DNA of 64,000 nucleotides from a virus: positions 9,034 through 73,033 of IMG/VR virus record IMGVR_UViG_3300035034_001213; one strand, written 5' to 3'. Positions within the stretch are counted from its first letter, which is position 1. Each line of letters starts with the position of its first letter. The position numbers and the translations under genes were made by a program. Under the pieces are notes generated by a model that saw only the letters and a list, made by a program, of their open reading frames with translations, did no database searches and was not told where the DNA came from. Below are positions 6,449-58,646 of the stretch, in pieces.

Positions 6449-6474
6449 GACAACTCTCCGGAGGATGGGGTTTT

Positions 6475-13166: not shown

Positions 13167-13168
13167 CC

Positions 13169-13199: not shown

Positions 13200-13297
13200 C
13201 TGTAATATGTTATTTTTGATCCACTGGACTGATTTAATGGTAGACACCACGTCCAGTTACACTCGTGTTTTACCCGAATTATAACAGGAGCTCAACG

Positions 13298-31714: not shown

Positions 31715-32056
31715 ACATAACACCTACTTAGAACGGATTGTTTAGAAATTTCGTAAGAGGAGGGCATTTAACCCTCCTCTATATTCGGTTTTTAGAATGG
31801 ACTGTTAGCTGGTGTTAACGCGCTGCCTGATGAGAAGCCTGAGCTACTGGTGACAGCCGAGACGTTCCATCCAGTGCCGTTTGATCGATAGTCGATGACT
31901 GGAAGTCTAGGATGGCTTGTTTGTACGCATCGATCGCGGTATTCAGCTCTGTACGCTTGGTATTTAAGTCTGCAATGGTGCTCGTGCGTTTCCCCAGTCT
32001 TTTTAAACGATGTCATAAGATAAAGCCGAAATACAGGAGAGCCTAAGCCCTCCTTT

Positions 32057-40065: not shown

Positions 40066-40097
40066 AAGAGGAGGCCCGAAGGCCTCCTCTATTTTTT
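40066..40097 (-). terminator. Hairpin terminator after the desaturase array
   Basis: AGAGGAGGCC-CGAA-GGCCTCCTCT; on the minus strand the loop is TTCG. Confidence 0.75.
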
Positions 40098-42430: not shown

Positions 42431-42440
42431 AGAGGTTCTC

Positions 42441-43240: not shown

Positions 43241-44002
43241 CTACCCTCTCTTCTTGATAAGTCGAATAAACATTGCGGTAGGATCAAGTTCCCACCATCT
43301 ATGTTGAAGATTCCATTGACTGGGAAACGTGTGATGGTTGTTGTGCCACCCTTCGCCAACCGATAAGATGTTGCAAAGCCAGCTGTTCTTTGAATGATCG
43401 TTATCTGGGTAGTTTTGATACCCCCAAGAATGACTCATAATCGATAGACAGAAGCCTACTACGAACGAATGCAGCGCCGCTGGAACGATGTACACGGCCA
43501 GAAGCCACTCAGGCCCTCCGAACAATAACAGTCCAAGACCATAAAGCGCATTCAATAAAAAATAATGCGTGTGAACCCAAAACATGATCGGATCACGAAC
43601 CACGTCTCTGACGGAAACCCGCCGGTCTTGCATGTCGACGTATTTCAAACACAGAAGCGCTTTCCAGAAACCCATGTGACGATGACAATGTGGGTCCTTA
43701 GGCGTCTCGGTATAACGATGATGAACTCGATGCATCCAGGCCCAACTGATGGGAGTTCCCATCGCCAAAGGCACACTCATCAACGCCATGATCAATTCAA
43801 TGGGTCGGTACGTCTTGTAGCTTCGATGCGAAACGTATCGATGCATGTACGCGTTGAACCCAATGCATTGTTGAACACAATAGACACCGAGGGTTACCCA
43901 GAGCAACTCAGGGAAGGCCACCGCCAAGTAGATAACACTTGGAATAAACGCTAACCATAACCCGTTTCTAAAGACGTTCAATCGTTGTACGCTATACTCC
44001 AT
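43241..44002 (-). CDS. Membrane fatty-acid desaturase, copy 1
   Basis: His boxes HRYVSH, HRVHH and GEGWHNNHH. Confidence 0.92.
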   Translation of the reverse strand: MEYSVQRLNVFRNGLWLAFIPSVIYLAVAFPELLWVTLGVYCVQQCIGFNAYMHRYVSHRSYKTYRPIELIMALMSVPLAMGTPISWAWMHRVHHRYTETPKDPHCHRHMGFWKALLCLKYVDMQDRRVSVRDVVRDPIMFWVHTHYFLLNALYGLGLLLFGGPEWLLAVYIVPAALHSFVVGFCLSIMSHSWGYQNYPDNDHSKNSWLCNILSVGEGWHNNHHTFPSQWNLQHRWWELDPTAMFIRLIKKRG

Positions 44003-45188
44003 ATCTGGTGACTCCTAAAACACTGTTCAATCCACCAAAGCCAAATGCGTTCTTGATAAACGAATTGACTGGACCAGTAACTTGGTGTTTGGGAAGGTTA
44101 ATCGGTTTTATGTCGGGGTCAGCTTCGAATTTACCGTTTGAGATGATAAACTCATACTTCATTTGATACAAGCTGTAGATCAACTCAATAATGCCAGACG
44201 CCGTGAGGGTGTGACCAATCAAACGTTTAAACGCAACGACTGGAATCTCATTGCCAATCACGTTTGAGATTGCTTCTGCTTCAACGACATCGCCATTAGG
44301 GGTTGAGGTCGCGTGTGCTGAGATGAAATCCGGACGGTGTCCCAACATAGCCATCTTACCTAAAACCTCAGACATGGACGCTGAGGCCCCCTCACCGGAA
44401 GGGTTCGTCATGTCTTCGCCGTCTGAATAATCAGCGTAGGCTATAGGCTGACCATACGCTTTAGTACCACCACGTTGACGGAAGTATTCTTCCGATTCGA
44501 GAATAACACACCCGCCACCTTCACCATGTGTAAACCCACCACGATGTTTGACAAACGGCACACTGGCGTACGCTAGGTCGTCGCCTCGATAGAGTGCTCT
44601 CATGGCATCAAAGCCACGCATACCCTCATCGATGTATTTTTCAGTACTTACACAAATAACCACATCTGCACGACCAAGTTCGATCAGATCCATACCTTGG
44701 GTCACCGCGCGTAGTCCTGTAGCACACGCGTGTTGCACTGTGTGCGTTGGGCCTTTCAACTTAAGAACGGTAGAGAGAGGTCCAGTTACAACCGTCGGAA
44801 GAGTCTTCATGAGATCAAACGGTTTGACCCGTGGGAAGTCCTTCTGAACAATACTACGCATGGAAGGCATGTCGCCAGCACCGCTGCCTGAGCACAAGGC
44901 TACTCGTCGAGTATTTATGTCGTCTAAACACAACCCCGCGTCCGCTAATGCGTCTAGTACTACTGCGTAGGAGATGTTTAAATGATCCATTTGATAACTA
45001 CGAGGAATCCCGGGCGCCAGTAACCGTGAGTCGTCAATGCATTTGGAAACACTGCTCGCCTTGTTCCTGGGATCGTTACTTTCGTACCGTTGGATCGAAA
45101 CTGTCTCTTGTTTCAGATTGCCAACAATTTCTCCCTCCCAACGTCCAATTGAGGTAATACACCCCACACCCGTTATTACACAACTCAT
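43992..45188 (-). CDS. Beta-ketoacyl-ACP synthase (FabB/FabF-type ketosynthase)
   Basis: VITGVGCITSIG, catalytic HAC(ATG), GEGGG, SAHATST, KRLIGHT and NAFGFGG; the Cys-His-His triad is intact. Confidence 0.92.
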   Translation of the reverse strand: MSCVITGVGCITSIGRWEGEIVGNLKQETVSIQRYESNDPRNKASSVSKCIDDSRLLAPGIPRSYQMDHLNISYAVVLDALADAGLCLDDINTRRVALCSGSGAGDMPSMRSIVQKDFPRVKPFDLMKTLPTVVTGPLSTVLKLKGPTHTVQHACATGLRAVTQGMDLIELGRADVVICVSTEKYIDEGMRGFDAMRALYRGDDLAYASVPFVKHRGGFTHGEGGGCVILESEEYFRQRGGTKAYGQPIAYADYSDGEDMTNPSGEGASASMSEVLGKMAMLGHRPDFISAHATSTPNGDVVEAEAISNVIGNEIPVVAFKRLIGHTLTASGIIELIYSLYQMKYEFIISNGKFEADPDIKPINLPKHQVTGPVNSFIKNAFGFGGLNSVLGVTRYGV

Positions 45189-45783: not shown

Positions 45784-46338
45784 TCATTCTTTTAAATAAA
45801 CATCAATAGGTATCGCAAGTCTAAGTCCAGGCTCGTGATTCTCAACGCTGTGCTGTAAGTACGATGGAAAGATAACCAGACCGCCGTGTTCGGTTTTGTA
45901 TTTGTACGGCTGAAAGTGATTGTTGATCACATCCGTTGGGTATCCTCGAGACGCCAGTCCTCTTGGGTCAAACAAAGTTAAATACCCTTCCCTTGCCTCC
46001 AAGTAATAAATTGCAGAAACGTGGGCACCGCTGTGGTGGTGGATTGGTGTCCCGCACCCGTCGCTGCTGTTTCTTACCCAGCCAGTCCAGCTGTCTAGTA
46101 AAGGTTCGTAATTAAACTGATCCCAGGCGTACTGCATGATCTTGGGGATCAAGGTCTCCTCTACAAACTCTTTCAGGTTCGGGTACTGTCTTAGATGCAA
46201 ACTTCTGGTGTCGTCGATTGGAAGTCCGTCGGTACTCCTCGGTTGCATCATCGCTTCGTAAATCAACGTTTCGTGCTGTTTAGAGACGACCGAATCTTCA
46301 CGTATCGCGACAGTCCATGGATGAACGTCAATTGTCAT
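45784..46338 (-). CDS. 2OG-Fe(II) oxygenase (TIGR02466/PF13759-like)
   Basis: HHHSGAHVSAIYY, FDPRG, VIFPSYLQHSV and RLAI. Confidence 0.85.
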   Translation of the reverse strand: MTIDVHPWTVAIREDSVVSKQHETLIYEAMMQPRSTDGLPIDDTRSLHLRQYPNLKEFVEETLIPKIMQYAWDQFNYEPLLDSWTGWVRNSSDGCGTPIHHHSGAHVSAIYYLEAREGYLTLFDPRGLASRGYPTDVINNHFQPYKYKTEHGGLVIFPSYLQHSVENHEPGLRLAIPIDVYLKE

Positions 46339-46347
46339 GGAATATCC

Positions 46348-46914
46348 TTACTTAGGTTTACTCAAGTACAAATCGACTGGAATAGAAATTCTCATCTTTT
46401 TATCATGTCCGTCAACGTAGTGTTGAAGATACGACGGGAATACAAGAAGCAATCCTTCTTTTGGATCTTCGCTGAACAAATTAAAAAATTCATTCCGAAC
46501 CACCGTCGGGTATCCTCGGCACGCAGACCCTCGGGGGTCGACCAGATTGAGTGCGCCGCCATTGGTAGTTAATGGATAGTAGATCGCTGACAGAACGGCC
46601 CCACTGTGTTCGTGAAGTTTCATACCTTCGCCACCGGTCGTTACTCGGACCCAAGCGTTGTATGTGTACTCCACGGCTTCTAATTCCCAGTGCTCGTAAA
46701 GATACGACAGCAGCGCTGGGAGAACTCGATCTTCAAGCATCCGATGGATCTGTGGAAACGTCTTTAATGAAACGGTGTTGTCATCCAGATCCAGATCGTC
46801 GAAGTTTCGGTTTGTAGACCGTATCAGCGCTTCGGTTATCAATTCGTCGTTGTCTACGTTTTCGAGTATCTCCCGACGGACCACTGTCCGCCATGGTTCT
46901 ATATCTTGAAACAT
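46348..46914 (-). CDS. 2OG-Fe(II) oxygenase (TIGR02466/PF13759-like), paralog
   Basis: HEHSGAVLSAIYY, VDPRG, VFPSYLQHYV and RISI; GGAGG RBS before ATG 46914. Confidence 0.85.
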   Translation of the reverse strand: MFQDIEPWRTVVRREILENVDNDELITEALIRSTNRNFDDLDLDDNTVSLKTFPQIHRMLEDRVLPALLSYLYEHWELEAVEYTYNAWVRVTTGGEGMKLHEHSGAVLSAIYYPLTTNGGALNLVDPRGSACRGYPTVVRNEFFNLFSEDPKEGLLLVFPSYLQHYVDGHDKKMRISIPVDLYLSKPK

Positions 46915-47324
46915 GCGGCCTCCGCCATACACTCGTCTTTGAAATATTGGACCGTGAAATCCACCCACCGACCTTTTAGGGGAATGTTCTCAATGCCCCC
47001 TAAGGCCTCCAATATGATGTCGTACGATTCCTTGTCTTGGGTGTAGGGTACAAAGTATTCATCAGTTCCGTATAAAAGCATGGGGTCGTTTAAGACCTCA
47101 TAGAACGGTTCGTTGAAGTGTTCCCAAAGTAACCGAGAATAAATCAAAGCAACCGCGTATGACTTTCCTGGATAAACCGATTCTTCCCGAGGGTCTAACA
47201 AATACTCCAAAGCCGGACCTACGACGTCTTCTCGATCAATGATCGTCTCAAAGTTTTCGACAGCGTCGGTGTGGACTTGGGTCATAAGGTGATATAGCTT
47301 CTGATTGGCTTTCCATTCTTTCAT
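46899..47324 (-). CDS. Hypothetical protein in the radical SAM cluster
   Basis: 141 aa, translationally coupled on both sides. Confidence 0.7.
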   Translation of the reverse strand: MKEWKANQKLYHLMTQVHTDAVENFETIIDREDVVGPALEYLLDPREESVYPGKSYAVALIYSRLLWEHFNEPFYEVLNDPMLLYGTDEYFVPYTQDKESYDIILEALGGIENIPLKGRWVDFTVQYFKDECMAEAACFKI

Positions 47325-48409
47325 GAAGCACGCCGCTCCCAGTTAAACTCTTCACGCATCTCCCTTGCGGTTGAAATACAGTGTTCGGAGTCGGTAATGG
47401 TCATCACTTTCTGGACTCCCCGCTCAGCGCACTTGGCAATGAACTCACACCCGTCACAGATGCCGTTGGTTTGCGCCAACGACAGACACTCGATCATACC
47501 GTCCTCTTCTTGACGAAAGATGTTCTCGAAGGTCCAGGGACCGTCCACTCGATGCTCCGGTTCAAAGGAGGAGAAGGCTTCCACAATGAACGGAGGCACA
47601 AACATCTCACCGTTGCGGTACACCACGTCCCAGTCTTCCCCTTCGTTCATCTGCAACTCAACGATTTCGAAATGTTCCTGACGCTCGTTCGCAGCCATCC
47701 GTGACTGGATAAGCAACCGGTTTAGGTGTTCAAGACTGGACAGGAAATTTTCTTGATTGACGGGATCTCTGAGGCTCTCTCGACCGTGAGGAAGAATGAA
47801 ATCGCTGTGCGACGTCGGATGGAGATTGACGTGGTACGCTCGAGTAAGGATGTCCTTAGTCAGAGTGAAGCCGCGTTTATGATCGTTGGCGATCGACTCC
47901 TCAAAGTTAACGACGCTGTAGACTCGAGTGATCTTAACGGTACTTAAGCAGCTTTCGAAATACGCCACCCTGTTACGAATGCCTTCGATGTACGCTGGGT
48001 TGTCAATGTGACGCACCTCAAACGGCACCGTAAACTTCAGAAGACCGTTAGGAATCAACGCTTCGACTTGTTCCGCCAACTTTTCATAGACCTCAGGTTT
48101 CGGATCTAGGAACGCACAGTTCAAGGTGGTCTTGAGAAACCGCTGAGCAATCTGCTTGATCCTCGGGTGTTCCAAGATCAAGTTTTTGTTCTCGGAGCTG
48201 AGGATGTCTGTGGGACCCAAGATAAAGTTGAGGACCTCCAACTCAGCGGTTTCAAAGGTATCGATCATTCGATCAATGCGATCAAACTCTTCAAGGGTTG
48301 GGAATCGATTGTCTTCTTTCTCAACCATACATCCCGAACAATTGTGTCGACAGCCACTTGCGATTTCCATAGTGAAGTCGATTAACTTATTAACTTGTGA
48401 CTTGTGCAT
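47321..48409 (-). CDS. Divergent radical SAM protein with a C-terminal Cys cluster
   Basis: CRHNCSGC (CxxxCxxC); C-terminal CDGC..KC..C; no GGE motif. Start moved to ATG 48409. Confidence 0.75.
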   Translation of the reverse strand: MHKSQVNKLIDFTMEIASGCRHNCSGCMVEKEDNRFPTLEEFDRIDRMIDTFETAELEVLNFILGPTDILSSENKNLILEHPRIKQIAQRFLKTTLNCAFLDPKPEVYEKLAEQVEALIPNGLLKFTVPFEVRHIDNPAYIEGIRNRVAYFESCLSTVKITRVYSVVNFEESIANDHKRGFTLTKDILTRAYHVNLHPTSHSDFILPHGRESLRDPVNQENFLSSLEHLNRLLIQSRMAANERQEHFEIVELQMNEGEDWDVVYRNGEMFVPPFIVEAFSSFEPEHRVDGPWTFENIFRQEEDGMIECLSLAQTNGICDGCEFIAKCAERGVQKVMTITDSEHCISTAREMREEFNWERRAS

Positions 48410-48413
48410 AATT

Positions 48414-49469
48414 TCACCAACTGCATTTATAGCTGAGTTTACCGAGCACCGACAAACACTCATGCGTTCCTAATAACCTCTGTACTCGATGTACCCCTCG
48501 AGTTGCGCACTTGCTGACAAACCGACACCGAGAACATTCGTTAGATTCACCAGCACGGGTGATGGATTCGAAAAAGGTCTCTTGATCGGCCTGTTGGATC
48601 TTGTCAAGTGTCCAGGGTTTCTTGAATTTGAAGTCGTCGTGAAAAATGGTGATCGGACTGTTAATAAGGGGGGCTATATACAGGTCGCCATTGCGATACG
48701 CCAGATGATAATCGCACCCAACGTGCTCACCCAGATCGTCGATCTTAAACTCGTACCCTTTGTCCACCTGATTGGCAAACATTTCGTTTTGCTTCAAGAT
48801 GGTTCTTAAGAACTCTTCTCGGTCTTCGTTAACCGACAGGTCACGGCGGCCGTAATGAAACACAAACGTGGTGGTGTCTGACTTTTCAAACAACTCGATG
48901 TGTCGGGTCTTATGGAGCGTCTCTTCACTGACAACGCCTTTGTCCATCAGCGACTCGGTCATATTCACGATCGCGGTAACACTCCCGATCCCCACCGACT
49001 TCAGATTTTCATTCAACCAGTTGATGCGACCCCGGAGCTTTTCAACGTACCCCAAGTTGTCGTGATGCTTTAATTCGAAGGGTACCAGAAACTCCGCGTT
49101 CAACCCTGGCATAAACGCCTCGAGCTCTTCAGCAAACTGAACGTACGCGTCCGGATCGGGGTTCAAGAAGGAGCAGTTGAACACCACCGACTTAAACCCT
49201 TTTAACATCTTTCGAACCGCAGGGTGAGTTAATACGTCTTGTCGATTGCTGGCGGACATGATGTCTACCGGTGCAAACTCCATCCAAGACATCTCCCATC
49301 CACGACTGCGTACGTCGTCAATAATCTCACTGAGCGCTGCGAGATCGGCTTCTGTGTATGGGGTAATGTCTTTGGTGTTAACGCTGCACCCAGAACACCC
49401 GTAGTCACAGTCTTTTAACAACTCCAGCGCTAGATTGCCGATGTTGTCCCCTCGAACCATGGTTGTCAT
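48414..49469 (-). CDS. Divergent radical SAM protein, paralog of 47321-48409
   Basis: CDYGCSGC; C-terminal CSRC..KC..C; shares (C)xFLxP.P..Y and VPFE motifs with its neighbour. Confidence 0.75.
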   Translation of the reverse strand: MTTMVRGDNIGNLALELLKDCDYGCSGCSVNTKDITPYTEADLAALSEIIDDVRSRGWEMSWMEFAPVDIMSASNRQDVLTHPAVRKMLKGFKSVVFNCSFLNPDPDAYVQFAEELEAFMPGLNAEFLVPFELKHHDNLGYVEKLRGRINWLNENLKSVGIGSVTAIVNMTESLMDKGVVSEETLHKTRHIELFEKSDTTTFVFHYGRRDLSVNEDREEFLRTILKQNEMFANQVDKGYEFKIDDLGEHVGCDYHLAYRNGDLYIAPLINSPITIFHDDFKFKKPWTLDKIQQADQETFFESITRAGESNECSRCRFVSKCATRGVHRVQRLLGTHECLSVLGKLSYKCSW

Positions 49470-50422
49470 TGCGATTCAGCCCATTTTAACAAATGTAGAA
49501 ACCCGTTGCACGAGTGCGTCGTATCGGTGACTTTACGAAGATGTTCAGACAAACACTTACCGGCGTAGTCACATTCCGAACACTTGGAATCAAGTACCTT
49601 GAGCTTCTCTCCTGCACACCAACCAAAGTATTCCTCGATACTGTCCAACTCCAAAAAGTATTCGTTGTCTTGTTCATCAAAGTCCAAGACGCCGAACTTC
49701 CCAGTTGGGGTGATGTAGACGTGGTCGTCGGAGAACGAATGTCCCCGACCTTCCAAACAATCTTGTATGTTCAACGCGTTCACAAAATCAAACTTCATCT
49801 TATCTTGGCGCTTGTACAACACCTTGATAAACGCCTCGTAGTCGTGATAACTCACCGGCAGTTGATTGGCTTGATTAGGACTGTACGGCTTGATCTCTAC
49901 CGACGTGAGATTTGACAACAGGTTTAACGTGTTGATGATCTCATCTGGGTCTTTCGCCATTACTTCGGGAGTAGCCAACATCAAAATCGAAAAGTCGCGT
50001 TCCATTTTTAACATCTGCTGAAAGACGTGGTCGTGCTTTTCTCGAGCCTCAAAGTCGTAGCTCACTGAGATGCCCCAGCTCACGTCGTGGACCGCAGGAT
50101 TGTTCATGGATAGATTGGTGATGATGTTAAGATCGTCAATCCCACGATCGTGTAACCCGTCCTTCAGTGCGCCGATGTATTCCGGTGGCAACAACAAAGG
50201 TTCGCCACCGTACAGATCCACCATCTCTACCTTCCGGTGAATCATTACCTCATCGATCCGATCAAACAACCGATGCAACGTCAAGCGCTTCTTGTCGCCG
50301 AGTTGTTCTGACGTGAGATAACAAAACCCACATCGGAAATTACAGAAGTACGAAGGATTAATGCTAAGATTAATCGGAATCTCAGGTAACGTCAAAGAGT
50401 TTGAGTTCATCGTTACTCTCAT
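49466..50422 (-). CDS. Radical SAM protein with a C-terminal Cys cluster
   Basis: CNFRCGFC, YGGEP, TNLS; C-terminal CSEC..C..C. Confidence 0.9.
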   Translation of the reverse strand: MRVTMNSNSLTLPEIPINLSINPSYFCNFRCGFCYLTSEQLGDKKRLTLHRLFDRIDEVMIHRKVEMVDLYGGEPLLLPPEYIGALKDGLHDRGIDDLNIITNLSMNNPAVHDVSWGISVSYDFEAREKHDHVFQQMLKMERDFSILMLATPEVMAKDPDEIINTLNLLSNLTSVEIKPYSPNQANQLPVSYHDYEAFIKVLYKRQDKMKFDFVNALNIQDCLEGRGHSFSDDHVYITPTGKFGVLDFDEQDNEYFLELDSIEEYFGWCAGEKLKVLDSKCSECDYAGKCLSEHLRKVTDTTHSCNGFLHLLKWAESQ

Positions 50423-51479
50423 CTACGTAGGGGGTGGGAATCAATTGCCCAGTCAATCCATTGGCCTCGATGATCTCTGGGGCAAGAGCTTTCATCTTAC
50501 GACAGTGCTCTTCAACACGACCTGTCTTTTTAGCGTCGCGTATGCTCTTCTTACACCCATTGCATATAGAGAACATTGGACAGAAGAAACAGTCTTTCTT
50601 CAGACTTTGCAGTTCATAGACTTGAAGCGGCAGTTTCATCTCCCCTTCCATCTCCTCGTTAAAGTCGATGGGGTATTCTCGATCGTCCCCAAACGACCCA
50701 CAAGAATAATAGCCACCATTGGGTTGCATGGTGCGAATACCAGAGTCGCAGTTACGAGACAAAGGACAAGCGTCAGAACCTTTGGCTAAAACTTGAAGCA
50801 TCTGCTTAGTGCTGTACTCCCAGGGTGCCAGACCTTCCCGCCACACCGCCAAATACGCTTTGTACATATCGGCGACTAAGAAATGTTGATCTTCACTGCC
50901 CATGGTGCCTTTACGGGTTTGTATTACCGGACCCGAAGCGTTGGTGTAGTTGATCTTACATTCCACATCCATCGCTTTGGCTAAACGTACTGTCTTCACC
51001 ACATCGTCGACGTTCGTTTCATCGATTACTGAGATGAACGATGGGCGATACCCCACCAGCTCCAACATGAGGTCTGAGACGGCCCAGAACTCCTCTTCGG
51101 TGAAAGGGGTATAATCACCCTTCAAACGCTTGTTACCGTACTGGAAGCTCGTAGCAACGCCCACACGAGGGTGTTTGAACAACTCCAGCCACATCTGAGG
51201 TTTCTTGTAGAACGGCCAGAGGTTGGTCGTCAGTGAAATGGACGTGTGGGGCATATCCAACTCATCCAGAATCTCAATCATTTCCCAGTAGTACGACACG
51301 GGCATCATAAGGGGATCGCCGCCGTTGATGATGATCGTATCGGTTTGTGGGAATCGTTGAAGAAACCGTTTGATGTCCGGAAGCTCAACGATGTCGTTGC
51401 TGTCCTCAGCGATGTCGGTGCTTGAGCAGAAGGTGCACTTAAAGTTACACTTCTCAGTTGGCTTAATTATCAAATCGAT
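50382..51479 (-). CDS. Radical SAM/SPASM-domain protein
   Basis: KPTEKCNFKCTFC, NGGDP; SPASM-like CPLSRNC..C..CFFC..CNGC..C. Start is either ATC 51479 or TTG 51473. Confidence 0.9.
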   Translation of the reverse strand: MDLIIKPTEKCNFKCTFCSSTDIAEDSNDIVELPDIKRFLQRFPQTDTIIINGGDPLMMPVSYYWEMIEILDELDMPHTSISLTTNLWPFYKKPQMWLELFKHPRVGVATSFQYGNKRLKGDYTPFTEEEFWAVSDLMLELVGYRPSFISVIDETNVDDVVKTVRLAKAMDVECKINYTNASGPVIQTRKGTMGSEDQHFLVADMYKAYLAVWREGLAPWEYSTKQMLQVLAKGSDACPLSRNCDSGIRTMQPNGGYYSCGSFGDDREYPIDFNEEMEGEMKLPLQVYELQSLKKDCFFCPMFSICNGCKKSIRDAKKTGRVEEHCRKMKALAPEIIEANGLTGQLIPTPYVDESNDELKLFDVT

Positions 51480-51510
51480 TTTACTACCCTCCTAGCCGTT
51501 AAGGGCTCGT

Positions 51511-52569
51511 TTAAACATTCATGGCAGGAATGCGTTTATCCGGTCCTTCGACGACCGAGTCAATGTACCGATGCGTGACTTTGTAGACACACTCATCCAT
51601 CTCTTCCCGGAACCGGTAATTGTGTTGCATGAAACAACCCAACTCACAACGCTGGAAATACTCACAGGTCAAGCACCCATATTTCTCCATGAAGTGCTCT
51701 TCAATCGCCGAGTTGTCGGTTTTGTCCAACGGCACCTCGTAAATCTCTTCCGCCACCTTGGGATCGATCAGATTACCGCAGCCGCACGTGGTCCCGTCTT
51801 CTAAGACCAGTTTACTCGACCGACACGACAGTGCCGAAGGCTGACGTCTTAACCACCCGGCGACCGGCTCACAGTTCGGGTAGTGGTCAATCAAAAACTT
51901 GAACATGCGTAACAAGTCATGATCGCTTGGGGCTGCGTTGGTTTTCTCATCCGGCATGAGGTAATCGAAGTACAACTTAAACCCTTGATCGTACGCCCAA
52001 CTAAAGAACTCGTCTTGGTCTTTGACGAAGTGTTCGATGTTTTGCTTGGTCATCAAAAGACTGACGCTTCGAACCACGCGCGGTCCATAGTAAGCCAGGT
52101 TCTTCTTGAAGATCTCTAACTGCGCTCGATTGAATCTTCCTTTTGGATCGTAGGACACCGTCACTGTGGTGCTTCCGCCCAAGGTTCTTGCTCTTTCTAA
52201 GAAGTCGTCCAGTAGCGGGCGGTCCTCCGTGACCAGATTTGTCACCCAGTTCAACGTCACCGCTATGTTCTTCGCCCGACATTGATCGATAATCGCTTCA
52301 CTGAACCGAACGTAGGTGTCGGCCAATTCGGGGGTAAAGACCTCTGGTGCAAAGACCTCACCCCCCATAATGTTAAACACCACTTTGCGTTTGGTTTCTT
52401 TTTGCAGAAGCGCTTCAACAGAAGAGAGCTTGCCCATGACATCATCGACCCCCACTAAGGAGTCGTGATCCTGCCAACAGAAACTGCATGACAGGTTACA
52501 GTAGGTGAACAGATGTAACGTGTACTCCTGCTCTTCATCGCGCTTGTTCTGTAAAAAGACGTCCATCAT
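51511..52569 (-). CDS. Radical SAM/SPASM-like protein
   Basis: CNLSCSFC, MGGEV; C-terminal C..CGC..CLTC..CELGC..C. Confidence 0.9.
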   Translation of the reverse strand: MMDVFLQNKRDEEQEYTLHLFTYCNLSCSFCWQDHDSLVGVDDVMGKLSSVEALLQKETKRKVVFNIMGGEVFAPEVFTPELADTYVRFSEAIIDQCRAKNIAVTLNWVTNLVTEDRPLLDDFLERARTLGGSTTVTVSYDPKGRFNRAQLEIFKKNLAYYGPRVVRSVSLLMTKQNIEHFVKDQDEFFSWAYDQGFKLYFDYLMPDEKTNAAPSDHDLLRMFKFLIDHYPNCEPVAGWLRRQPSALSCRSSKLVLEDGTTCGCGNLIDPKVAEEIYEVPLDKTDNSAIEEHFMEKYGCLTCEYFQRCELGCFMQHNYRFREEMDECVYKVTHRYIDSVVEGPDKRIPAMNV

Positions 52570-53582
52570 AATTCAAAGCCTTTACAGTCCTCCGCTGTCA
52601 ACGTCACGGCCCAATGGATCACGTGGACTTTGAGTTTGTCCATGTCGGCCCAGTCGAGGTAGTCCGTGTGTTCGGTGCTTGTGCGGAGCATGGAAATGAA
52701 TTGAGTCACCACTTCGTCATCGCTCAAAGGCGCTAACGTGTCGATGATCTTCAACTTGGCGCGTTCGCCTGCGATTTGCGTTTTCTCGATCTGAACTTCC
52801 TGATCCAGATACACCGCCATGTCTCGCAGCACCGCCTCTTGAGCCGGTTCTTTTAAACGAGTGATGCGAAGACTCAGGTTCGGGTCGTTCAAAAAATTGA
52901 GTCTGGGTATCTTACGCAGTATGTCGAAATCACCCAGGTACTTAGCAGCGGTGTATCCGTACTTCTTCTGCATGTTCTCAGAAAAGAACAGAGACACCAG
53001 GTTCCGCTGTATCTCATCGATGTGATTGTGCATCGATCGTAACGCAAATACTCGAATCGGATCGGCTAAGTTCGCACGTTTGTTCCCAGACAAATGGTCC
53101 AAGAGTTTGTATTCCAACGACACTCGTTCTGGCATGTCTCGAACCAAAGCCCTCAGTTCTGGATCTTGCTCCACGATTGAGAGACCAACCAACGTTTCTT
53201 TCAGCACGTCGGTCTTTGGCAGCGGTACGCCTTGAGTGCTGAGTGACAGAAACTCCAGATTCAGTAGCTGAAGCAATTGTTCTGAACTGGCGTTTGGAAA
53301 CAACGCTTTGAGCCACTTAGCCACTAATTGCCCGTAGGACTCGACACTGGTGTAGATAACTACCTTCTTGTCACCCAGTCCTTTGTACTTAGCAATCAGA
53401 TCGGAGAAACCGCTTTTAACGAATTTCTCTTCGTCAGGCTCCACCCCCATGACAAAGGGACCAGAGATTAAAGTTTCATCAAAATTCTCACCTAAGGCCT
53501 TTGAAGCCAGGAAGAACGTGTTCTGCTCGTCTTTGAGTACGTCCACACCTAGGTAGATGCGATTAAACAAATGATACATCAC
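52566..53582 (-). CDS. Hypothetical protein in the radical SAM cluster
   Basis: 338 aa, coupled by ATGA overlaps. Confidence 0.75.
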   Translation of the reverse strand: MMYHLFNRIYLGVDVLKDEQNTFFLASKALGENFDETLISGPFVMGVEPDEEKFVKSGFSDLIAKYKGLGDKKVVIYTSVESYGQLVAKWLKALFPNASSEQLLQLLNLEFLSLSTQGVPLPKTDVLKETLVGLSIVEQDPELRALVRDMPERVSLEYKLLDHLSGNKRANLADPIRVFALRSMHNHIDEIQRNLVSLFFSENMQKKYGYTAAKYLGDFDILRKIPRLNFLNDPNLSLRITRLKEPAQEAVLRDMAVYLDQEVQIEKTQIAGERAKLKIIDTLAPLSDDEVVTQFISMLRTSTEHTDYLDWADMDKLKVHVIHWAVTLTAEDCKGFEL

Positions 53583-54304
53583 GTTTCCTTAAGCGACTCT
53601 TGCTGTTTTTGTAAGACTGCAACCGCCGACTGAAATTCATCGTCGGATATCATGTGGCCGTCGGCCAGTGCCGTCGTTAACACGTGCACGTCGTTCTCAG
53701 GAATTGACCAGTATGCGAACAGGTTCTTACCTTTGAACATGTAGTCGTTGAAGTACTTGGTGTAGTTCTTGACCAAGTTCTCACTGATTACGTTCATTGT
53801 CAATGGAAACAATGGGTTGTCGAACAAATGTACGAAGTTGATGCCTTTTGTATCAGCGGTTTCATCTAGGGGGAAGTGCTCCACCACCGATGAGATTGTT
53901 TCATCGTTGATCGTGGTCATCATGTACAGACTCATGGAGTCGATCAACGACAACCATTTACCAAGGATCTCGGTGTGGTCTTTGATCCACTTATCCGTAA
54001 TCCAATTGCATTCAGCAATGCCTTTGATGTGCAAGATGACCTCAAGCACCATGGTCTCAAGGGTTGGGCATTTCAGCAACGTTGGTAGTGTGAGGTAGGC
54101 TTCAAGTACGTCCCACGCTTCGTCGCCATTGAACGTGACGTCCACTGGGAGTTCCAAGTTACTTAGATACACCAACGCTTGATACGGACTGACCCTTTCT
54201 CGGGAAGCGCTAAGATCAACCAAAAGCGAGACTTCTTTATCGCCAATGATTTCTCTGAGAGTTTCAACCGGAATAGGCACGGTGGTTTCTATTACTCTAC
54301 TCAT
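53579..54304 (-). CDS. Hypothetical protein in the radical SAM cluster
   Basis: 241 aa; start overlaps the stop of the precursor-like gene. Confidence 0.75.
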   Translation of the reverse strand: MSRVIETTVPIPVETLREIIGDKEVSLLVDLSASRERVSPYQALVYLSNLELPVDVTFNGDEAWDVLEAYLTLPTLLKCPTLETMVLEVILHIKGIAECNWITDKWIKDHTEILGKWLSLIDSMSLYMMTTINDETISSVVEHFPLDETADTKGINFVHLFDNPLFPLTMNVISENLVKNYTKYFNDYMFKGKNLFAYWSIPENDVHVLTTALADGHMISDDEFQSAVAVLQKQQESLKET

Positions 54305-54855
54305 TATCGCCGACCTCTTGAGTTATGGCACCGAGAGTGACATCGAGTGTGACAGACATCTCGAGTTAATAACGTAGCCCCTCCCCGAGCGAATGCTAAA
54401 TAGTTGTTTCTTAGAGACTCGATGAAGTCATACGTATCCGATTGATCAACGTCGTTTCCGGCGATAACGGTGGTTATATCCGGAAATCCAGTGTCGGCAG
54501 CGTATTGAGGGGCCAAATGAGCCACCGCTGTGACGTTGTAAATCAATCTTTTGCTGTTGTTGTAATACCCAGATCGGGTTCGATAAATAGTGATCTGCGT
54601 GTTACGAACATTGAAATACCCTTGTGCAACCCCGATCAAACTGCTCCTACATCTCAATGCGTCCAATTCCCCATCGGTGCCTCGTATTGAAGCATATGAA
54701 GGCATCGTGTAATCGCCACCAGTGCTTCCACCAAACCATCCCAGAAGGGAACCGGAAGGGTAATTGTTGGTGCCCCACGAAATACCACTTCTTTGCAGCT
54801 CTCTTACCCGGGTTAGAAACCGGTTGTAGACGTCGTATACCCTAATGTCAGCCAT
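54304..54855 (-). CDS. Putative radical SAM substrate (RiPP-precursor-like or virion protein) with a C-terminal CHxx repeat
   Basis: Ends in VCHTRCHSRCHNSRGRR*; flanked by radical SAM genes. Confidence 0.65.
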   Translation of the reverse strand: MADIRVYDVYNRFLTRVRELQRSGISWGTNNYPSGSLLGWFGGSTGGDYTMPSYASIRGTDGELDALRCRSSLIGVAQGYFNVRNTQITIYRTRSGYYNNSKRLIYNVTAVAHLAPQYAADTGFPDITTVIAGNDVDQSDTYDFIESLRNNYLAFARGGATLLTRDVCHTRCHSRCHNSRGRR

Positions 54856-54901
54856 GTCAAGCTTCCTATATATTTAAATGTCCATACGATCTAACGTTCC
54901 T

Positions 54902-55963
54902 CTATCCCACGTTCAAAGCAGGGATGATCTCTGTCTCTCCGTACTTAAAATGAGAGAGTAACATTCTCAATCCAGGACACGAATTTCCTTGCCAAACAAG
55001 TCGATGACAGTCTCCACCACACACATCGAGTAGGTGACAACTTAAACAATTGGGGTTTAAGTCCAGTTCCTTGGTGATGCGGTCCATTCTACCTTCGCTG
55101 GTTAGGAACTCTTCCACGGTGTCGTCCAAGGTACCGTTGGCTTCGACTTGTGCGCCGTTAGCACATCCACCAATACTGCCTGCCCCATCGATAGTGAACA
55201 AGTTCTGTTCGCAGTCCCGACAGTTGGTGTCAACTCTATAATTGTTGGTAGTGAACTTGGTTTCTATGGTGTCTAGCGTACCGATCTGGTAATTCGGCTT
55301 TAGCCGTTTGTAGGCAAAGTACAAGTCGTAATAGAACTTATCGACCGCCCGGTTGTCTGGGAACATGTGAGGGTTGTCTACCGCGTTACCGTCTGAGGTC
55401 AAGCGTTCTACAGCGATCTCAGTCACCCCAAAGGTGTCCCACAGTTTAATCAACTCGTCCACGTCGTAGTTCAAGATCTGATCGGTGACGGTCACAAACA
55501 TCTTGACCTCGATGTTGAGGTCGTTCATGGTCTTCAAGTTACCCAGCCATTGATTGTACATGCGCTCGGTTTTGAAACGGTACACCGGGTCCCAACTCGT
55601 GCCGATCAAACTCCCCATGATCTTTTCAAAGAAATGAAGGTGTTTGTCGGTCAGCTTGTAAATCAGATTGGTGGTGGCCCCAATGGTAATGTCTTCCCAT
55701 ACTTCTTCGCCGACCAGACGTTCCACTTCCAACGCGAATTCCCAGTGCTCGTGGATGGGTCGTAGAAAGGGTTCGCCCCCGTGGAGTTCCAGATGTACGT
55801 GCTCGCCTGGAAACCGTAAAGCCAGATCACTGACCCACCGTGCCACCTTTCTCGGGTCCCAGGCCGTCTTAGCGCCCTTAGAGCCGGAGGTAAAACAATG
55901 ATCGCAATCTAGGTTGCATGTGTCGGTTGGTTTAACGTAAACAACCTTAGTCATAATTTCCAC
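54902..55963 (-). CDS. Radical SAM/SPASM peptide-maturase-like protein
   Basis: KPTDTCNLDCDHC, HGGEP; SPASM CRDC..GC..CLSC..CGGDC..C. Confidence 0.92.
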   Translation of the reverse strand: MEIMTKVVYVKPTDTCNLDCDHCFTSGSKGAKTAWDPRKVARWVSDLALRFPGEHVHLELHGGEPFLRPIHEHWEFALEVERLVGEEVWEDITIGATTNLIYKLTDKHLHFFEKIMGSLIGTSWDPVYRFKTERMYNQWLGNLKTMNDLNIEVKMFVTVTDQILNYDVDELIKLWDTFGVTEIAVERLTSDGNAVDNPHMFPDNRAVDKFYYDLYFAYKRLKPNYQIGTLDTIETKFTTNNYRVDTNCRDCEQNLFTIDGAGSIGGCANGAQVEANGTLDDTVEEFLTSEGRMDRITKELDLNPNCLSCHLLDVCGGDCHRLVWQGNSCPGLRMLLSHFKYGETEIIPALNVG

Positions 55964-56433
55964 CTATCCTCAAGGAAGCGCTCATTACCAAAGCTGATCA
56001 TGATGCTCTCCTCGATGTTAACGCCTCGATGTGGGGTGCCTGCTGGTACCCAAACCCCTGGGTTGTCGGCATTCAACGTAATCACTTCCCCATCGATCTC
56101 AATGGTCTTCGTCCCCCACATCCATTTTAAATAAATGTCGTAAGGGTCTTCGTGTCGGACAAAGCTTGGGCCGTTTGCAGGTGCCCAGAACAGATGAGCG
56201 TTGCAAGGACCGTTATGATCGGCTTCTCGTTTCACGTTCAGGGTTTCAAGGTAGACCCACTCAAACACCTTTTCCAATTCTTCGATCTTAATCGTCTTAA
56301 GTTTATTGTCAAAGGCTTCGGCCATGGACTCCACTGGACGAATCATGTGGTCTTCGTCGATTCTGGAAACCATTCCCTCCAGATATAAATCTGGAAACGT
56401 GAGCAGCATTTCCACTTTGTCTTTGAAATCCAT
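55951..56433 (-). CDS. JmjC/cupin-like oxygenase (ROX/YcfD-like fragment)
   Basis: SFVRHEDPYD (HxD) ... GTK ... VPAGTPHRG; GAGGAG RBS. Confidence 0.75.
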   Translation of the reverse strand: MDFKDKVEMLLTFPDLYLEGMVSRIDEDHMIRPVESMAEAFDNKLKTIKIEELEKVFEWVYLETLNVKREADHNGPCNAHLFWAPANGPSFVRHEDPYDIYLKWMWGTKTIEIDGEVITLNADNPGVWVPAGTPHRGVNIEESIMISFGNERFLEDRWKL

Positions 56434-56533: not shown

Positions 56534-58177
56534 TTACTGCCACTGTGGTGGCCACACGGTTCTCCATCCTCCACTAACAAACGCTTGAAGGTTACCCCCA
56601 ATCTCACGAAGAGACAAAGACTCGGCGGTGTTCTTCTGAACGTAACCACCCAGTCTATTTGTAAATTCAGCATTGAGTTTATTGGAAACCAACAGTGGGG
56701 TCATGTAAACGTCACCACGCGTACCCGCAACTGCTTCTGAGGTAAGCGCGACACGATAGTTCTCGACGGAACCCAGACCCACCTGGGCCTTTGTAACTTG
56801 ATGAGGATTGCTTAGATCGCCCACGTGGGCACTTAACTGATCCCCGGCAATGGATTCAATGGCGTCCCGAACCTTAGACGGAGTCATGTATCGGTTGTTC
56901 GCCGTTCCAGCCTCCGCTTCTGCAGTGTTGGCCACTGGGAAATTATCAACGGAACCAAGACCCACCTGGCCCTTTGTAACTTGATGAGGATTGTTTGTAG
57001 CCGTTGCGTGCGCTGTGAACGCATCGGTGATTTGAACCTGAATCGCTTCAGCCACTGACGATGGGGACATGTACCGATCCCCTCGAGTGCCTTCACGTGC
57101 CTCCACCACACTCGACATTGAATAGTTCTGCACATTACCAAGACCCGTCTGGGCTTTAGTCACATTGTGCGGATTTGATTCGTTGTCGATGTGCGCCGTC
57201 ATGGTCACACCAAAGAGCGCTTCCACTCCAGCATTCAGTGTCGCTGGGGTGATAAACCGATTGGTCACCGATCCACCTTCCGCTTCTGCAACTGAGGCGT
57301 CTGGGTAGTTTGACACCTGACTCAAACCCACTTGGGCTTTTGTCACGGAATGGGGGTTATCGATTCTTGCCGTGTGAGAGTTCAAGGGCGTCAGAGCTTG
57401 GGTCTCAATAGCCTCAGCCACACGAAGCGACGTCATGAACCGAGCGTTCGACGTCCCAGCCCTCGCCTCAGCCTCGGTAGAGGTGCTATAGTTGCTGACC
57501 AACCCTAGGCCTACCTGAGCTTTGGTGACCACGTGTGGGTTGTCTGTACGCGCTTCATGCGCATTCAACTCATCACGCACTTCTTCAGCTCGGTCCAACG
57601 CCTTCTGATATCGGTCTTCAATCATGGCCTTGAGTTCGTCGTGAGACGCTATGTCGCCCAAGAGGATCGCTTCCCGGACTTCATTCAACGCTTGAACAAC
57701 AAATTCAAACCCATAGATGTCGCCGATGTCATGTAAGTGCTGAGCAGGCGGAAAGGCGTCTGGTCGACCCAGAAGATCGCCCCACATGACTTCCCGATCG
57801 TCGAGATTCAGATTGTTGATAAGATCGATGATGACCTGAGTGATGTTAGCGTAATCACCACCCACTACTTGATAGTCGATCGAAATCTCACTGGAGACGG
57901 TTCCGTCGGTGACGATGACGCCTGCGCAGACTTCCTTGCCTGACCGCTCAGAGGGGTCGGCGTAATACATGATCGGAACGTATTGGTCGTTCTTAACAAG
58001 AACGCTTCCGTCGATGGTGTCTCTGACAACCAACGATTCTGTGTAGAACGCACCATAACGAGGAACGGCTGCTCGATTGATGCCAGGTTCCAGTGCGTGC
58101 AATTCACCTAAGACGTTGTTCTCAGGTGAGGTCCCCGTAAGATCAAGGGGATACTTGATGATGTAATTTTCGCTCAT
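56534..58177 (-). CDS. Tail fibre protein (phiKZ gp145/146-like) with roughly 61-aa repeats
   Basis: N-terminal YPLDLTG..P.N.V.GELH domain; five NPHxVTK(A/G)Q(V/T)GL repeats; ends WRTVWPPQWQ. Confidence 0.8.
   Translation of the reverse strand: MSENYIIKYPLDLTGTSPENNVLGELHALEPGINRAAVPRYGAFYTESLVVRDTIDGSVLVKNDQYVPIMYYADPSERSGKEVCAGVIVTDGTVSSEISIDYQVVGGDYANITQVIIDLINNLNLDDREVMWGDLLGRPDAFPPAQHLHDIGDIYGFEFVVQALNEVREAILLGDIASHDELKAMIEDRYQKALDRAEEVRDELNAHEARTDNPHVVTKAQVGLGLVSNYSTSTEAEARAGTSNARFMTSLRVAEAIETQALTPLNSHTARIDNPHSVTKAQVGLSQVSNYPDASVAEAEGGSVTNRFITPATLNAGVEALFGVTMTAHIDNESNPHNVTKAQTGLGNVQNYSMSSVVEAREGTRGDRYMSPSSVAEAIQVQITDAFTAHATATNNPHQVTKGQVGLGSVDNFPVANTAEAEAGTANNRYMTPSKVRDAIESIAGDQLSAHVGDLSNPHQVTKAQVGLGSVENYRVALTSEAVAGTRGDVYMTPLLVSNKLNAEFTNRLGGYVQKNTAESLSLREIGGNLQAFVSGGWRTVWPPQWQ
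56766..56993. repeat. 45-bp direct repeat (2 mismatches) at 183-bp spacing inside the fibre gene
   Basis: 56766-56810 matches 56949-56993. Confidence 0.85.
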
Positions 58178-58205: not shown

Positions 58206-58646
58206 TCAGGAAATCGACTCATTATTAAAGCAGGAGGCGTTGCCGGTATAGTCGGCTATACGGCGTCTGAGTCTATCGTCCGCTGGTATTTTACGCTTCT
58301 TGTTGTATTTTCTCCAACCTAGCGCCCTCACCGCATAATACATAGACTTAGCCAATGTCGATGGTACGCCTTCCTCCAACATAGCTCTAAGAAACAACAA
58401 ATCCGCCAGCTTACGAGTTACCGATGTTCCTGAATATAGGAAGTCGTGCAACAGCGCAGCCCAACGGGCCCAACCCTTTACCAACACGAAGATAATTGGT
58501 ACGTGTGGAACGCTGTCCAGATCGGTAACAAACCCACGAGGAATGACGTATCCATAACAGTCCCAATCTTCGTTGACGATCCAAAAGCCGCGTTTGGGCA
58601 GAGGACTTATCGACGGTAGCTTTAGGTACACCTGAGCATCAGACAT
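58206..58646 (-). CDS. DUF1353-family protein
   Basis: IPRGFVTDLDSVP..AALLHDFLY..RKLADLLFLRAM..MYYAVR. Confidence 0.85.
   Translation of the reverse strand: MSDAQVYLKLPSISPLPKRGFWIVNEDWDCYGYVIPRGFVTDLDSVPHVPIIFVLVKGWARWAALLHDFLYSGTSVTRKLADLLFLRAMLEEGVPSTLAKSMYYAVRALGWRKYNKKRKIPADDRLRRRIADYTGNASCFNNESIS

Follow-up and report, generated by a model that had tools for sequence, protein, structure and literature searches.

A viral operon of radical SAM enzymes and iron oxygenases conserved around a protein with a Cys-His repeat tail

Why would phages, many of which live on aerobic hosts, spend oxygen-sensitive chemistry on what is probably a component of a fibre? This question is raised by a 64,000-nucleotide stretch of viral DNA (the window; positions 9,034 to 73,033 of the IMG/VR record IMGVR_UViG_3300035034_001213), in which a 183-residue protein that ends in Cys-His repeats, here called X, is encoded among six genes of the radical S-adenosylmethionine (SAM) type. 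Known targets of radical SAM/SPASM maturation are short bacterial peptides and a few cellular proteins. We found that X and a cassette of enzyme genes accompany each other across viral loci, and we lean, with somewhat better than even confidence, towards the reading that X is a folded phage protein, probably associated with fibres, and that the co-encoded enzymes modify its Cys/His tail. The 73-kb record was estimated to be 27% complete, which fits a jumbo phage, and a megablast search with positions 46899-56433 against 50,697 phage records gave no DNA match. Among the data sets listed for the region, a lake-water metagenome was the best DNA source, and none was of RNA.

The open reading frame (ORF) of X (54304-54855, minus strand) terminates in ...RDVCHTRCHSRCHNSRGRR, and the C-terminus of the protein is VCHTRCHSRCHNSRGRR. 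The initial annotation, made from the nucleotide letters alone, had described a 183-residue protein with three C-H-x-x units and a basic tail, and this description was borne out. The pattern CH..CH..CH occurred once among the 127,996 six-frame residues of the window, compared to about 6e-6 occurrences expected from the Cys and His frequencies of long ORFs. With phmmer, 1.84 billion cluster representatives were searched exhaustively, which retrieved 146 relatives of X at E <= 1e-3 (146 protein clusters, counted at 50% identity), mostly of 170-200 residues, which align through their last residue. Together with three proteins from a word-index search, they form the family set of 149 sequences used here. 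The exact ending CH..CH..CH..R.RR was present in 131 of them, so that the check for tail conservation among homologs, named in the initial annotation, came out in its favour, and 136 carried at least two CH units followed by no more than six residues at the end. Overall identity among the 131 exact-tail proteins was 23-55%. Since the exact ending defines this subset, C and H are necessarily invariant in its units; position three is variable (S, A, T, N, Y, D and others), and the fourth is Ser or Asn in 126, 122 and 121 of the 131 proteins for units one, two and three, respectively. The variable residue of the terminal R-x-R-R is G in 97, S in 19 and I in 7 cases, among others.

An alignment of 97 of the 149 sequences (A1; picked by eye, with fragments, long fusions, variant tails and P0001 excluded) had a mean column identity of 25%, and its sole invariant columns were C168, H169, R180, R182 and R183. 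Cys residues outside the last 20 residues averaged 0.74 in the family. Taken together, conservation in the X family is highest in the tail; the N-terminal domain has conserved motifs of its own, including P33, G43 and G47. Tail variants comprised two CH units (7 of the 149), four units with a GDGPGxGGGV end replacing RxRR (P0023, P0045, P0078 and P0130) and an expanded array (P0052, 13 CH dipeptides within its final 90 residues). In P0052 and in locus L041 (10001-10684), the CH arrays are interrupted by NV(P)V spacers and still end in ARGRR.

AlphaFold2, run on the 97-row alignment, modelled X as an alpha/beta domain with a mean predicted local distance difference test (pLDDT) score of 91.1 and a predicted template modelling (pTM) score of 0.84, which upholds the earlier suggestion of a folded 183-residue protein as opposed to a leader-sized peptide. 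The last two 10-residue blocks of the model scored about 56-58, so the tail is either flexible or context-dependent. Searches for relatives of this fold gave no match with Foldseek against the PDB (best E 0.7), no relative with VIA-align against 48,161 chains (best Z 4.4), nothing below E 0.4 in a PDB profile search and uncharacterised relatives only in BFVD. Furthermore, X matched no Pfam, NCBIfam or PHROG family (no NCBIfam and no Pfam match at E <= 0.01). A complex prediction with three X and three Zn scored 0.00 with controls absent, and carries no weight in either direction.

X belongs to a packed operon of 13 genes that runs on the minus strand from 56433 down to 45784. Nine of the 12 junctions from the cupin gene to the second 2-oxoglutarate (2OG) oxygenase gene overlap, and the three other gaps measure 9-46 nucleotides. 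The extent initially assigned to the system, 46899-56433, was supported but incomplete, as the cassette continues to two 2OG-Fe(II) oxygenases at 45784-46968. The features of the operon are the following.

55951-56433, minus strand: cupin, candidate cupin/JmjC-like Fe(II) oxygenase and first gene of the cassette (weak JmjC_2 match, ortholog profile)
54902-55963, minus strand: rsA, radical SAM enzyme with a full SPASM domain, directly upstream of X (Pfam, TIGR04085)
54304-54855, minus strand: X, folded protein of 183 residues with a Cys-His repeat tail, presumed substrate (ORF, homologs, AlphaFold2)
54307-54354, minus strand: tail of X, residues 168-183, CHTR-CHSR-CHNS-RGRR, followed by the stop codon (ORF translation)
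53579-54304, minus strand: p241, conserved partner whose start overlaps the X stop by 1 nucleotide (phrog_20767, annotated as unknown function)
52566-53582, minus strand: p338, conserved protein with no family match (found in 59 of 59 complete loci)
51511-52569, minus strand: rsB, radical SAM/SPASM enzyme (phrog_1802 radical SAM, E 2.7e-47)
50382-51473, minus strand: rsC, radical SAM/SPASM-like enzyme with a TTG start in the ORF list (Pfam Radical_SAM, 41.0 bits)
49466-50422, minus strand: rsD, radical SAM enzyme with a shorter C-terminal Cys cluster (Pfam Radical_SAM, 39.4 bits)
48414-49469, minus strand: rsE, radical-SAM-like paralog, chiefly in jumbo-type loci (CDYGCSGC at C21, phrog_31457)
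47321-48463, minus strand: rsF, radical-SAM-like paralog of rsE (CRHNCSGC at C38, phmmer against rsE E 2e-58)
46899-47324, minus strand: p141, small conserved protein (phrog_20737, E 1.7e-38)
46348-46968, minus strand: 2OG-Fe(II) oxygenase, PF13759 (Pfam 2OG-FeII_Oxy_5, 54.4 bits)
45784-46338, minus strand: second 2OG-Fe(II) oxygenase, PF13759 (Pfam 2OG-FeII_Oxy_5, 49.3 bits)

To follow X beyond the window, we scanned IMG/VR and confirmed 177 loci, of which 80 (L002-L081, with 68 distinct X sequences) were kept for counting. Loci with at least 9 kb downstream and at least 1.7 kb upstream were taken as complete (n = 59), and adjacency of rsA was scored in those with at least 1.2 kb upstream (n = 76). 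ORFs were labelled by their best jackhmmer score with profiles seeded from the window proteins; the labels rsE and rsF may be swapped. The gene order was constant throughout the 80 loci, namely, cupin, rsA, X, p241, p338, rsB, rsC, rsD, (rsE, rsF), p141 and 2OG oxygenase, and the operon spans 9-11 kb in phages. The check whether homologs of X always stand beside radical SAM genes also favoured the initial annotation, with rsA directly upstream of X in 76 of 76 viral loci. All 59 complete loci contained rsA, p241, p338 and rsC, whereas rsB, rsD and the cupin gene were found in 57, p141 in 56, at least one PF13759 oxygenase in 53, rsF in 21 and rsE in 18. The number of radical SAM genes per complete locus was four in 36 loci, six in 18, seven in 2, five in 1 and two in 2. 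The six enzymes initially emphasised are thus not a conserved number, since the core is four, with six or seven in jumbo-type loci (those with two fibre-repeat genes upstream, to which rsE and rsF are chiefly confined) and two in a variant form. This variant form, with rsA and rsC only, was seen in L030 and L068, which are GDGPG/S74 variants without the RxRR end that keep p241 and p338; in L030, hhalign does not support the upstream neighbour of rsA as a cupin (probability 0.15). That rsB, rsD, cupin and p141 might go with the R-x-R-R end is an idea based on just these two related loci.

The reverse scan, carried out with p241, gave 168 IMG/VR loci, and all 80 kept loci carried a same-strand ORF ending in a CH run, 79 of which were canonical. 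Any same-strand ORF with such an ending was accepted in this test; in the nine loci whose positions were inspected, the stop lay 0-23 nucleotides before the p241 match. The linkage between X and the cassette is hence obligatory in both directions. Among 185,579 prokaryotic species genomes, at least four loci were confirmed, all of them contigs of metagenome-assembled genomes (MAGs) carrying the cassette, and the X family is almost only viral.

The cassette was also found, in the same gene order, in Pseudomonas phage pPa_SNUABM_DT01 (DT01; X ends in ICHTSCHTSCHSARGRR), Ralstonia phage RSF1 (X is ORF071 and ends in VCHSSCHSSCHGSRGRR) and Agrobacterium phage Atu_ph07 (a 296-residue form of X that ends in FCHSSCHASCHNSRSRR). 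The search with p241 furthermore matched Burkholderia, Sinorhizobium and more Ralstonia phages, giving 15 records and 12 phage names, with X checked in three. A tblastn search with X found DT01 only and missed the X of RSF1 and Atu_ph07; it was insensitive, and its count was not used. According to its paper, DT01 has RNA polymerase subunits of both the virion and the non-virion type as well as phiKZ-type internal head proteins, and Atu_ph07 is classed as a Rak2-like phage with T4 core genes in excerpts of PMC6102473. The same cassette is present in DT01, RSF1 and Atu_ph07, phages of different lineages, and we therefore conclude that the module has moved between lineages. Similar radical SAM arrays with generic annotation in other jumbo phages had been suggested in the initial annotation and do exist: isolate papers list [quoted passage not shown] generically or propose DNA repair.

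Several loci depart from the common layout. The MAG contig L087 carries two tandem short X genes (6062-6879; 137 and 134 residues) with canonical tails in a rearranged gene order. The Bdellovibrio-labelled MAG contigs L084 and L086 have seven radical SAM genes; a second gene of the rsA type separates X from p241, and the position of p338 is shifted upstream. In RSF1 (L082), two genes annotated as dihydrofolate reductase are inserted between the radical SAM genes of the cassette (12611-13727), and a GIY-YIG nuclease gene lies just upstream of cupin.

All six radical SAM candidates contain CX3CX2C inside their first 45 residues, starting at C16 (rsA), C24 (rsB), C9 (rsC), C27 (rsD), C21 (rsE) and C38 (rsF). 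CxxxCxxC motifs in six neighbours, with SPASM-like Cys clusters in several, had been noticed initially, and C-terminal Cys clusters were in fact present in all six. The cluster is a complete CX2CX5CX3C with further Cys up- and downstream in rsA and rsB (rsA has eight C-terminal Cys), a near-SPASM CX2CX5CX2C in rsC and a shorter CX2CX5C...C in rsD, rsE and rsF. By both Cys motifs, all six can be assigned to the radical SAM superfamily with a SPASM/twitch extension. The Pfam Radical_SAM model (cut-off 29.5 bits) was passed by three of the six, namely, rsA (35.5), rsC (41.0) and rsD (39.4), and the SPASM model TIGR04085 (cut-off 27 bits) by rsA alone (30.8; rsC reached 19.2). The paralogs rsE and rsF (phmmer E 2e-58) both belong to phrog_31457, annotated as unknown function, whereas rsA to rsD are mutually very distant (E 1e-8 or no match). 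The best NCBIfam matches of the radical SAM proteins were all to peptide- or protein-modifying SPASM enzymes (anSME, DynA, PapB, YhhB, HxsB and HxsC). The best equivalogs of rsA were anSME, DynA, PapB, YhhB and HxsB, all far under their cut-offs, and rsC matched DynA, anSME and HxsC weakly, also below the cut-offs. Because CX3CX2C begins at residues 9-38, there is no room for an N-terminal recognition domain. Enzymes of the anSME type, which act on whole proteins, typically have no such domain.

The cupin gene matched Pfam JmjC_2 weakly (E 0.0038, below the cut-off). A profile built from 27 orthologs matched cupin_2 structures (quercetin dioxygenase YxaG, E 7e-10); weaker matches were to MINA, a protein histidyl hydroxylase of the JmjC type (E 5.6e-5), and to a "cupin 4" protein (E 0.022). 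Residues H80, H94, D96 and H135 are invariant in the orthologs, and H94, D96 and H135 make up an H-x-D...H iron triad. Features of Fe(II)/2OG oxygenases were found in both kinds of gene, as family-model matches in the PF13759 genes and as the triad plus the profile matches to cupin_2 and MINA structures in the cupin gene, and the resemblance of the cupin protein to protein histidyl/arginyl hydroxylases hints at side-chain hydroxylation of a protein. For the three other conserved partners, the results were less telling. The AlphaFold2 model of p241 was of high quality (pLDDT 90.9), with no significant Foldseek match (best E 0.08); its best VIA hit (Z 5.1 over 58 residues) was a generic beta-alpha-beta unit, from which no conclusion was drawn. 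p338 had no Pfam, NCBIfam or PHROG match, and its profile gave nothing significant against the PDB. p141, with 15 invariant columns among 30 orthologs, had no PDB match, its profile giving chance-level rows; a relation to designed pentatricopeptide proteins was rejected, as no stretch passed alone. ESM Atlas models of p241 and p338 (pLDDT 0.39 and 0.41) were uninformative, with feature scores of at most 0.90 to unnamed clusters.

A link of X to phage fibres is suggested by domain fusions. P0053 and P0058 consist of the X domain, four CH units, GDGPGDG and then Peptidase_S74 (PF13884; E 1e-9 and 1.5e-11), and a Gly_rich_2 domain is fused N-terminally to X in P0138 and P0153. Peptidase_S74, the "chaperone of endosialidase", is a hallmark of trimeric phage fibres and spikes, where it aids trimerisation and then cleaves itself off. 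Self-removal of this domain would leave a CH-repeat C-terminus resembling the free-standing GDGPG forms. The X relatives thus resemble S74 fibres and spikes in carrying PF13884 right after the CH units and in their tail-fibre module context; the X of the window has no Peptidase_S74 domain (PF13884), and the metal sites known from fibres are HxH motifs that do not depend on maturation enzymes. A smaller alignment (A3) made for further S74/GDGPG variants recovered only L030 and L090, the latter being the contig of L068, and a metagenome scan added none among the matches listed. Four other loci, whose match was restricted to the S74 part (L091, L092, L106 and L116), proved to encode ordinary fibre proteins with no CH run in the ORF.

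The gene context points in the same direction. The cassette of the window is located between three fibre-repeat proteins (56534-58177, 60053-61198 and 62075-63934, all minus strand) and a tail-fibre protein (35938-38295). The former share a repeated NPHxVTKAQVGLGxVxNY-like fibre motif and match phrog_2163 and many tail-fibre PHROGs. Two fibre-repeat genes precede the cassette in all jumbo-type loci, and on the 156,657-bp contig L008, the cassette is found between tail-fibre-/baseplate-like genes and a fibre-assembly gene. In Atu_ph07, 131 virion proteins were detected by electrospray ionisation tandem mass spectrometry, clustered in coding sequences (CDS) 31-76, 170-215 and 284-329 (excerpts of PMC6102473). 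By our own count, the X of this phage is CDS 170; the count ran forward from named genes, which were those of the ribonucleotide reductase subunits (gp122/123), a head completion protein (gp125), a Clp-like protease (gp128), the tail sheath (gp132 and gp140) and a lysin (gp141). Its position at a virion-protein cluster is a suggestive pointer only to a virion location. Given the S74 and Gly_rich_2 fusions, the tail-fibre gene context and the position in Atu_ph07, X is probably fibre-associated. The virion or fibre-tip protein proposed initially thus gains from the fusions and the context, and the virion location itself is inferred.

Under the reading that we favour, the operon is a conserved and horizontally mobile unit that would post-translationally mature one of the phage's own proteins. 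X comprises a folded domain of about 165 residues and a flexible 16-residue C-terminus, (Cys-His-x-Ser/Asn)x3-Arg-x-Arg-Arg, which would be the substrate of the co-encoded enzymes. Several lines of evidence argue for X as the substrate: four mutually distant radical SAM orthologs stay with X, and with no other gene, across phage lineages; the family resemblances of these enzymes are confined to SPASM enzymes that modify peptides or proteins; they leave no space for a recognition domain at the N-terminus; C-H-x-[S/N] exceeds a ligand set, with H-x-[S/N] representing an aromatic-X-acceptor pattern; and HxsA, as described in excerpts of PMC13128918, is a bacterial precedent of an HxS protein matured by two radical SAM enzymes. 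In this scheme, rsA and rsC would be the minimal radical SAM/SPASM pair, rsB and rsD nearly constant additions, and rsE and rsF jumbo-phage extras. The cupin/JmjC-like and 2OG-Fe(II) oxygenases would contribute hydroxylations, and p241, p338 and p141 may be helpers that are non-catalytic or of undefined role. The most likely chemistry would be radical cross-linking within the tail, for example, from His-C2 to the conserved Ser/Asn at its C-beta, in the manner of three-residue cyclophanes; alternatives are a thioether at Cys or oxidation of Cys, and with four to seven enzymes several reactions may take place. The product may be a rigid, possibly metal-binding C-terminal knot, and mature X would be a virion fibre component, probably trimeric.

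Comparison with known systems places this reading in context. In excerpts of PMC13128918, HxsA is a whole protein with HxS repeats that is matured by two radical SAM enzymes, with a mass gain of 8 Da on SHRSS. The HXS system (HxsA, HxsB, HxsC and the small HxsD) resembles the cassette in its whole-protein substrate with tandem H-x-S, its two radical SAM enzymes plus a helper, and the basic residues around the HxsA repeats (excerpts of PMC13128918), and rsA and rsC weakly match HxsB and HxsC. However, HXS is bacterial and defensive, whereas the cassette is viral, each X unit has a Cys before the His, and the cassette encodes four to seven radical SAM enzymes plus oxygenases. The family models do not place the cassette within HXS: rsA scored 38.3 bits against HxsB (TIGR03978, cut-off 370) and rsC 31.0 bits against HxsC (TIGR03977, cut-off 267.9), X had no NCBIfam HxsA match, and no peptidoglycan-binding domain or signal peptide was found in it.

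A second likeness is to the triceptides (HaaB, HtkB and YhhB systems), in which aromatic-x-acceptor motifs with His as the aromatic residue (HTK, HAA and HNR) are cross-linked from His-C2 to the C-beta of residue 3 by radical SAM enzymes (excerpts of PMC11499958). X displays this aromatic-X-X pattern in three H-x-[S/N] units across the family, arranged in tandem, with H invariant, the next position free and the third Ser/Asn. The aromatic-x-x fit proposed in the initial annotation stands for the motif; it does not extend to the enzymes, none of which is at the cut-off of a known maturase family for peptides that are ribosomally synthesised and modified after translation (RiPPs). Triceptides differ in that X is a 183-residue folded protein and that its invariant Cys and R-x-R-R end have no counterpart among them. 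Against the cyclophane-synthase families (YhhB, XyeB, FxsB, GrrM/OscB and AmcB), the best score was 38.5 bits for rsA with YhhB (cut-off 445). Sactipeptide/ranthipeptide maturases with an N-terminal RiPP recognition element were equally remote, PapB giving 40 bits (cut-off 340) and SCIFF, StsB and others 20-23.

A third comparison concerns anSME, the top NCBIfam match of rsA (E 1.5e-12) and among the top three of rsC. This SPASM enzyme has no N-terminal recognition domain and acts on a full-size protein, and its target motif in sulfatases is C/S-x-P/A-x-R. The last unit of X, C-H-[GSN]-S-R, has the C, the S (+3) and the R (+4) of this motif, so Cys oxidation is a further option; the likeness ends at position +2, where Pro/Ala is replaced by Gly, Ser or Asn, and at the first two units, which end in Cys and not in Arg. 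The scores against anSME (TIGR03942, cut-off 349.45 bits) were 47.3 for rsA and 38.8 for rsC, and X has no sulfatase domain. Judged by these model cut-offs, the cassette lies outside the HXS, triceptide, sacti-/ranthipeptide and anSME families. We know of no radical SAM-modified virion protein, and none turned up in our literature search. Nor did we find a paper treating the motif or the cassette as a unit, in a literature coverage that is incomplete and no proof of absence. Compared to known radical SAM/SPASM maturation, what seems new is the viral setting, the protein-sized substrate, the undescribed CHxS-RxRR motif, the large conserved enzyme set and the probable structural destination.

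Other readings of the same locus were considered. X may not be a substrate at all: its three Cys and three His could bind Zn, Fe, Cu or an Fe-S cluster, making it either a fibre tip that is stapled by metal and left unmodified or a donor of clusters or electrons to the neighbouring radical SAM enzymes, whose true substrate would be elsewhere, in fibre proteins, lipids or nucleotides. We consider this unlikely. The Cys and His of X are indeed concentrated in the tail and invariant there, each radical SAM/SPASM enzyme requires several 4Fe-4S clusters, and phage fibre and spike tips (T4 gp37 and gp12, P2 gpV) bind Fe or Zn via His motifs. The Ser/Asn at the fourth position and R-x-R-R are conserved like ligands, whereas a simple metal site needs neither, and X matched no ferredoxin, Isc, Nfu or other carrier family in Pfam or NCBIfam. 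T4-like genomes of a marine virome with up to 12 radical SAM genes, which were not analysed there, also have Fe-S assembly genes (excerpts of PMC5332604). Unusual lipid genes, a ketoacyl synthase and five tandem desaturases, are found just downstream in the window, yet they are outside the conserved cassette in the other loci inspected. The strict two-way linkage with four distinct radical SAM orthologs, in phage lineages that have little else in common, is most simply read as an enzyme-substrate relation.

If X is a substrate, it could still belong to a true RiPP or cofactor pathway, in which the X domain is an oversized leader or scaffold and the modified 16-residue core is cut off to become a free small molecule such as a metallophore, an antibiotic or a redox cofactor of the pyrroloquinoline quinone or mycofactocin kind. 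The segment that looks modified stands at the extreme C-terminus, like RiPP cores, and the radical SAM enzymes resemble RiPP maturases above all else. RiPP loci typically contain several precursors and repeated cores, and the tandem X genes with canonical tails at L087 and the expanded CH arrays in P0052 and L041 are reminiscent of this. We nevertheless hold such a pathway to be distinctly improbable, since the Pfam, NCBIfam and PHROG scans revealed no recognisable protease, exporter or immunity gene in the cassette, the N-terminal domain of X is well folded (pLDDT 91) with its own conserved motifs, fusion to fibre chaperone and glycine-rich domains makes little sense for a leader, and the cassette is located in tail-fibre modules. 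The RiPP label of the initial annotation is therefore loose for a folded protein of this size. Adjacency to X could finally be incidental, the radical SAM genes being general auxiliary metabolic or DNA-repair genes, as isolate papers suggest and as weak matches of the N-terminal cores to viperin models might indicate. These matches are limited to the cluster-binding core (27-36 bits versus a cut-off of 180; PADLOC likewise gave weak pVip matches to radical SAM cores only), the operon is translationally packed, and adjacency was without exception (76 of 76 loci in one direction, 80 of 80 in the other), across 68 distinct X sequences and several phage lineages. The linkage statistics bring this last reading, which we rate as extremely improbable, close to refuted.

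The view that X is matured by its neighbours and is part of the fibre has its own difficulties, which we set out here together. No modification (thioether, cyclophane or other) has been observed on X. Two of the six enzymes fall below the Radical_SAM cut-off (rsB with 17.7 and rsF with 22.0 bits) and rsE has no Pfam match; no NCBIfam maturase cut-off is reached by any of the six, the best score being 47 against 349 bits. Four to seven radical SAM enzymes exceed the needs of known pathways for a 16-residue tail, so other substrates are conceivable for some of them. For X, p241, p338 and p141, neither a family nor a fold could be recognised, and the roles given to them are accordingly guesses. 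As to the fibre, the S74 fusion is confined to 2 of the 149 family proteins and the Gly-rich fusion to 2 clusters, and the Atu_ph07 argument depends on our own gene count and on a cluster boundary, with gp155, named in the paper, not fitting the count. X is annotated as "hypothetical protein", and not as a virion protein, in the RSF1, DT01 and Atu_ph07 records. The homology-based structural-protein lists of FLC6/S13 end at gp68/gp69, beside cupin gp70 and radical SAM gp71, and name no gene between the radical SAM genes. On balance, the earlier observation is confirmed and its interpretation partly supported, strongly for the linkage and the folded protein and by inference for the chemistry and the location.

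The operon is widespread (at least 177 IMG/VR loci) and devotes 9-11 kb to one 16-residue tail of a folded protein; its constant pairing with this protein points to an undescribed route by which viruses chemically modify one of their own proteins. It offers a defined substrate-enzyme set with four mutually distant radical SAM orthologs, which makes several new reactions on Cys, His, Ser and Arg probable; cultured carriers exist in Atu_ph07, DT01 and the Burkholderia and Sinorhizobium phages. A more specific proposal, to which we give clearly less than even credence, is that phages of several unrelated lineages build, at the C-terminal end of a fibre protein, a covalently cross-linked Cys/His knot that may be loaded with metal, by means of four to seven dedicated radical SAM enzymes and iron oxygenases. 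If correct, this would be the first case of a radical-SAM-matured structural protein of a virus. The cassette may also be a viral mirror of the recently described HXS defence. In a bolder version, the modified (C)HxS tail would be the viral counterpart of HxsA, acting at the envelope during DNA entry and mimicking or countering that defence.

Other genes of the window, all on the minus strand, merit a brief description. A beta-ketoacyl synthase gene (43992-45188) lies directly downstream of the cassette, followed by five tandem fatty-acid desaturase paralogs (43241-44002, 42441-43238, 41672-42475, 40914-41732 and 40089-40901), an array that is unusual for a phage; a sixth desaturase is encoded at 32057-32821. 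A likely endolysin (30911-31723) is an N-acetylmuramidase with a PG_binding_1 domain. Two genes adjoin the fibre genes, namely, 39149-40024, with weak PKD and DUF285 matches, and 58206-58646, which encodes a DUF1353 protein (71.6 bits).

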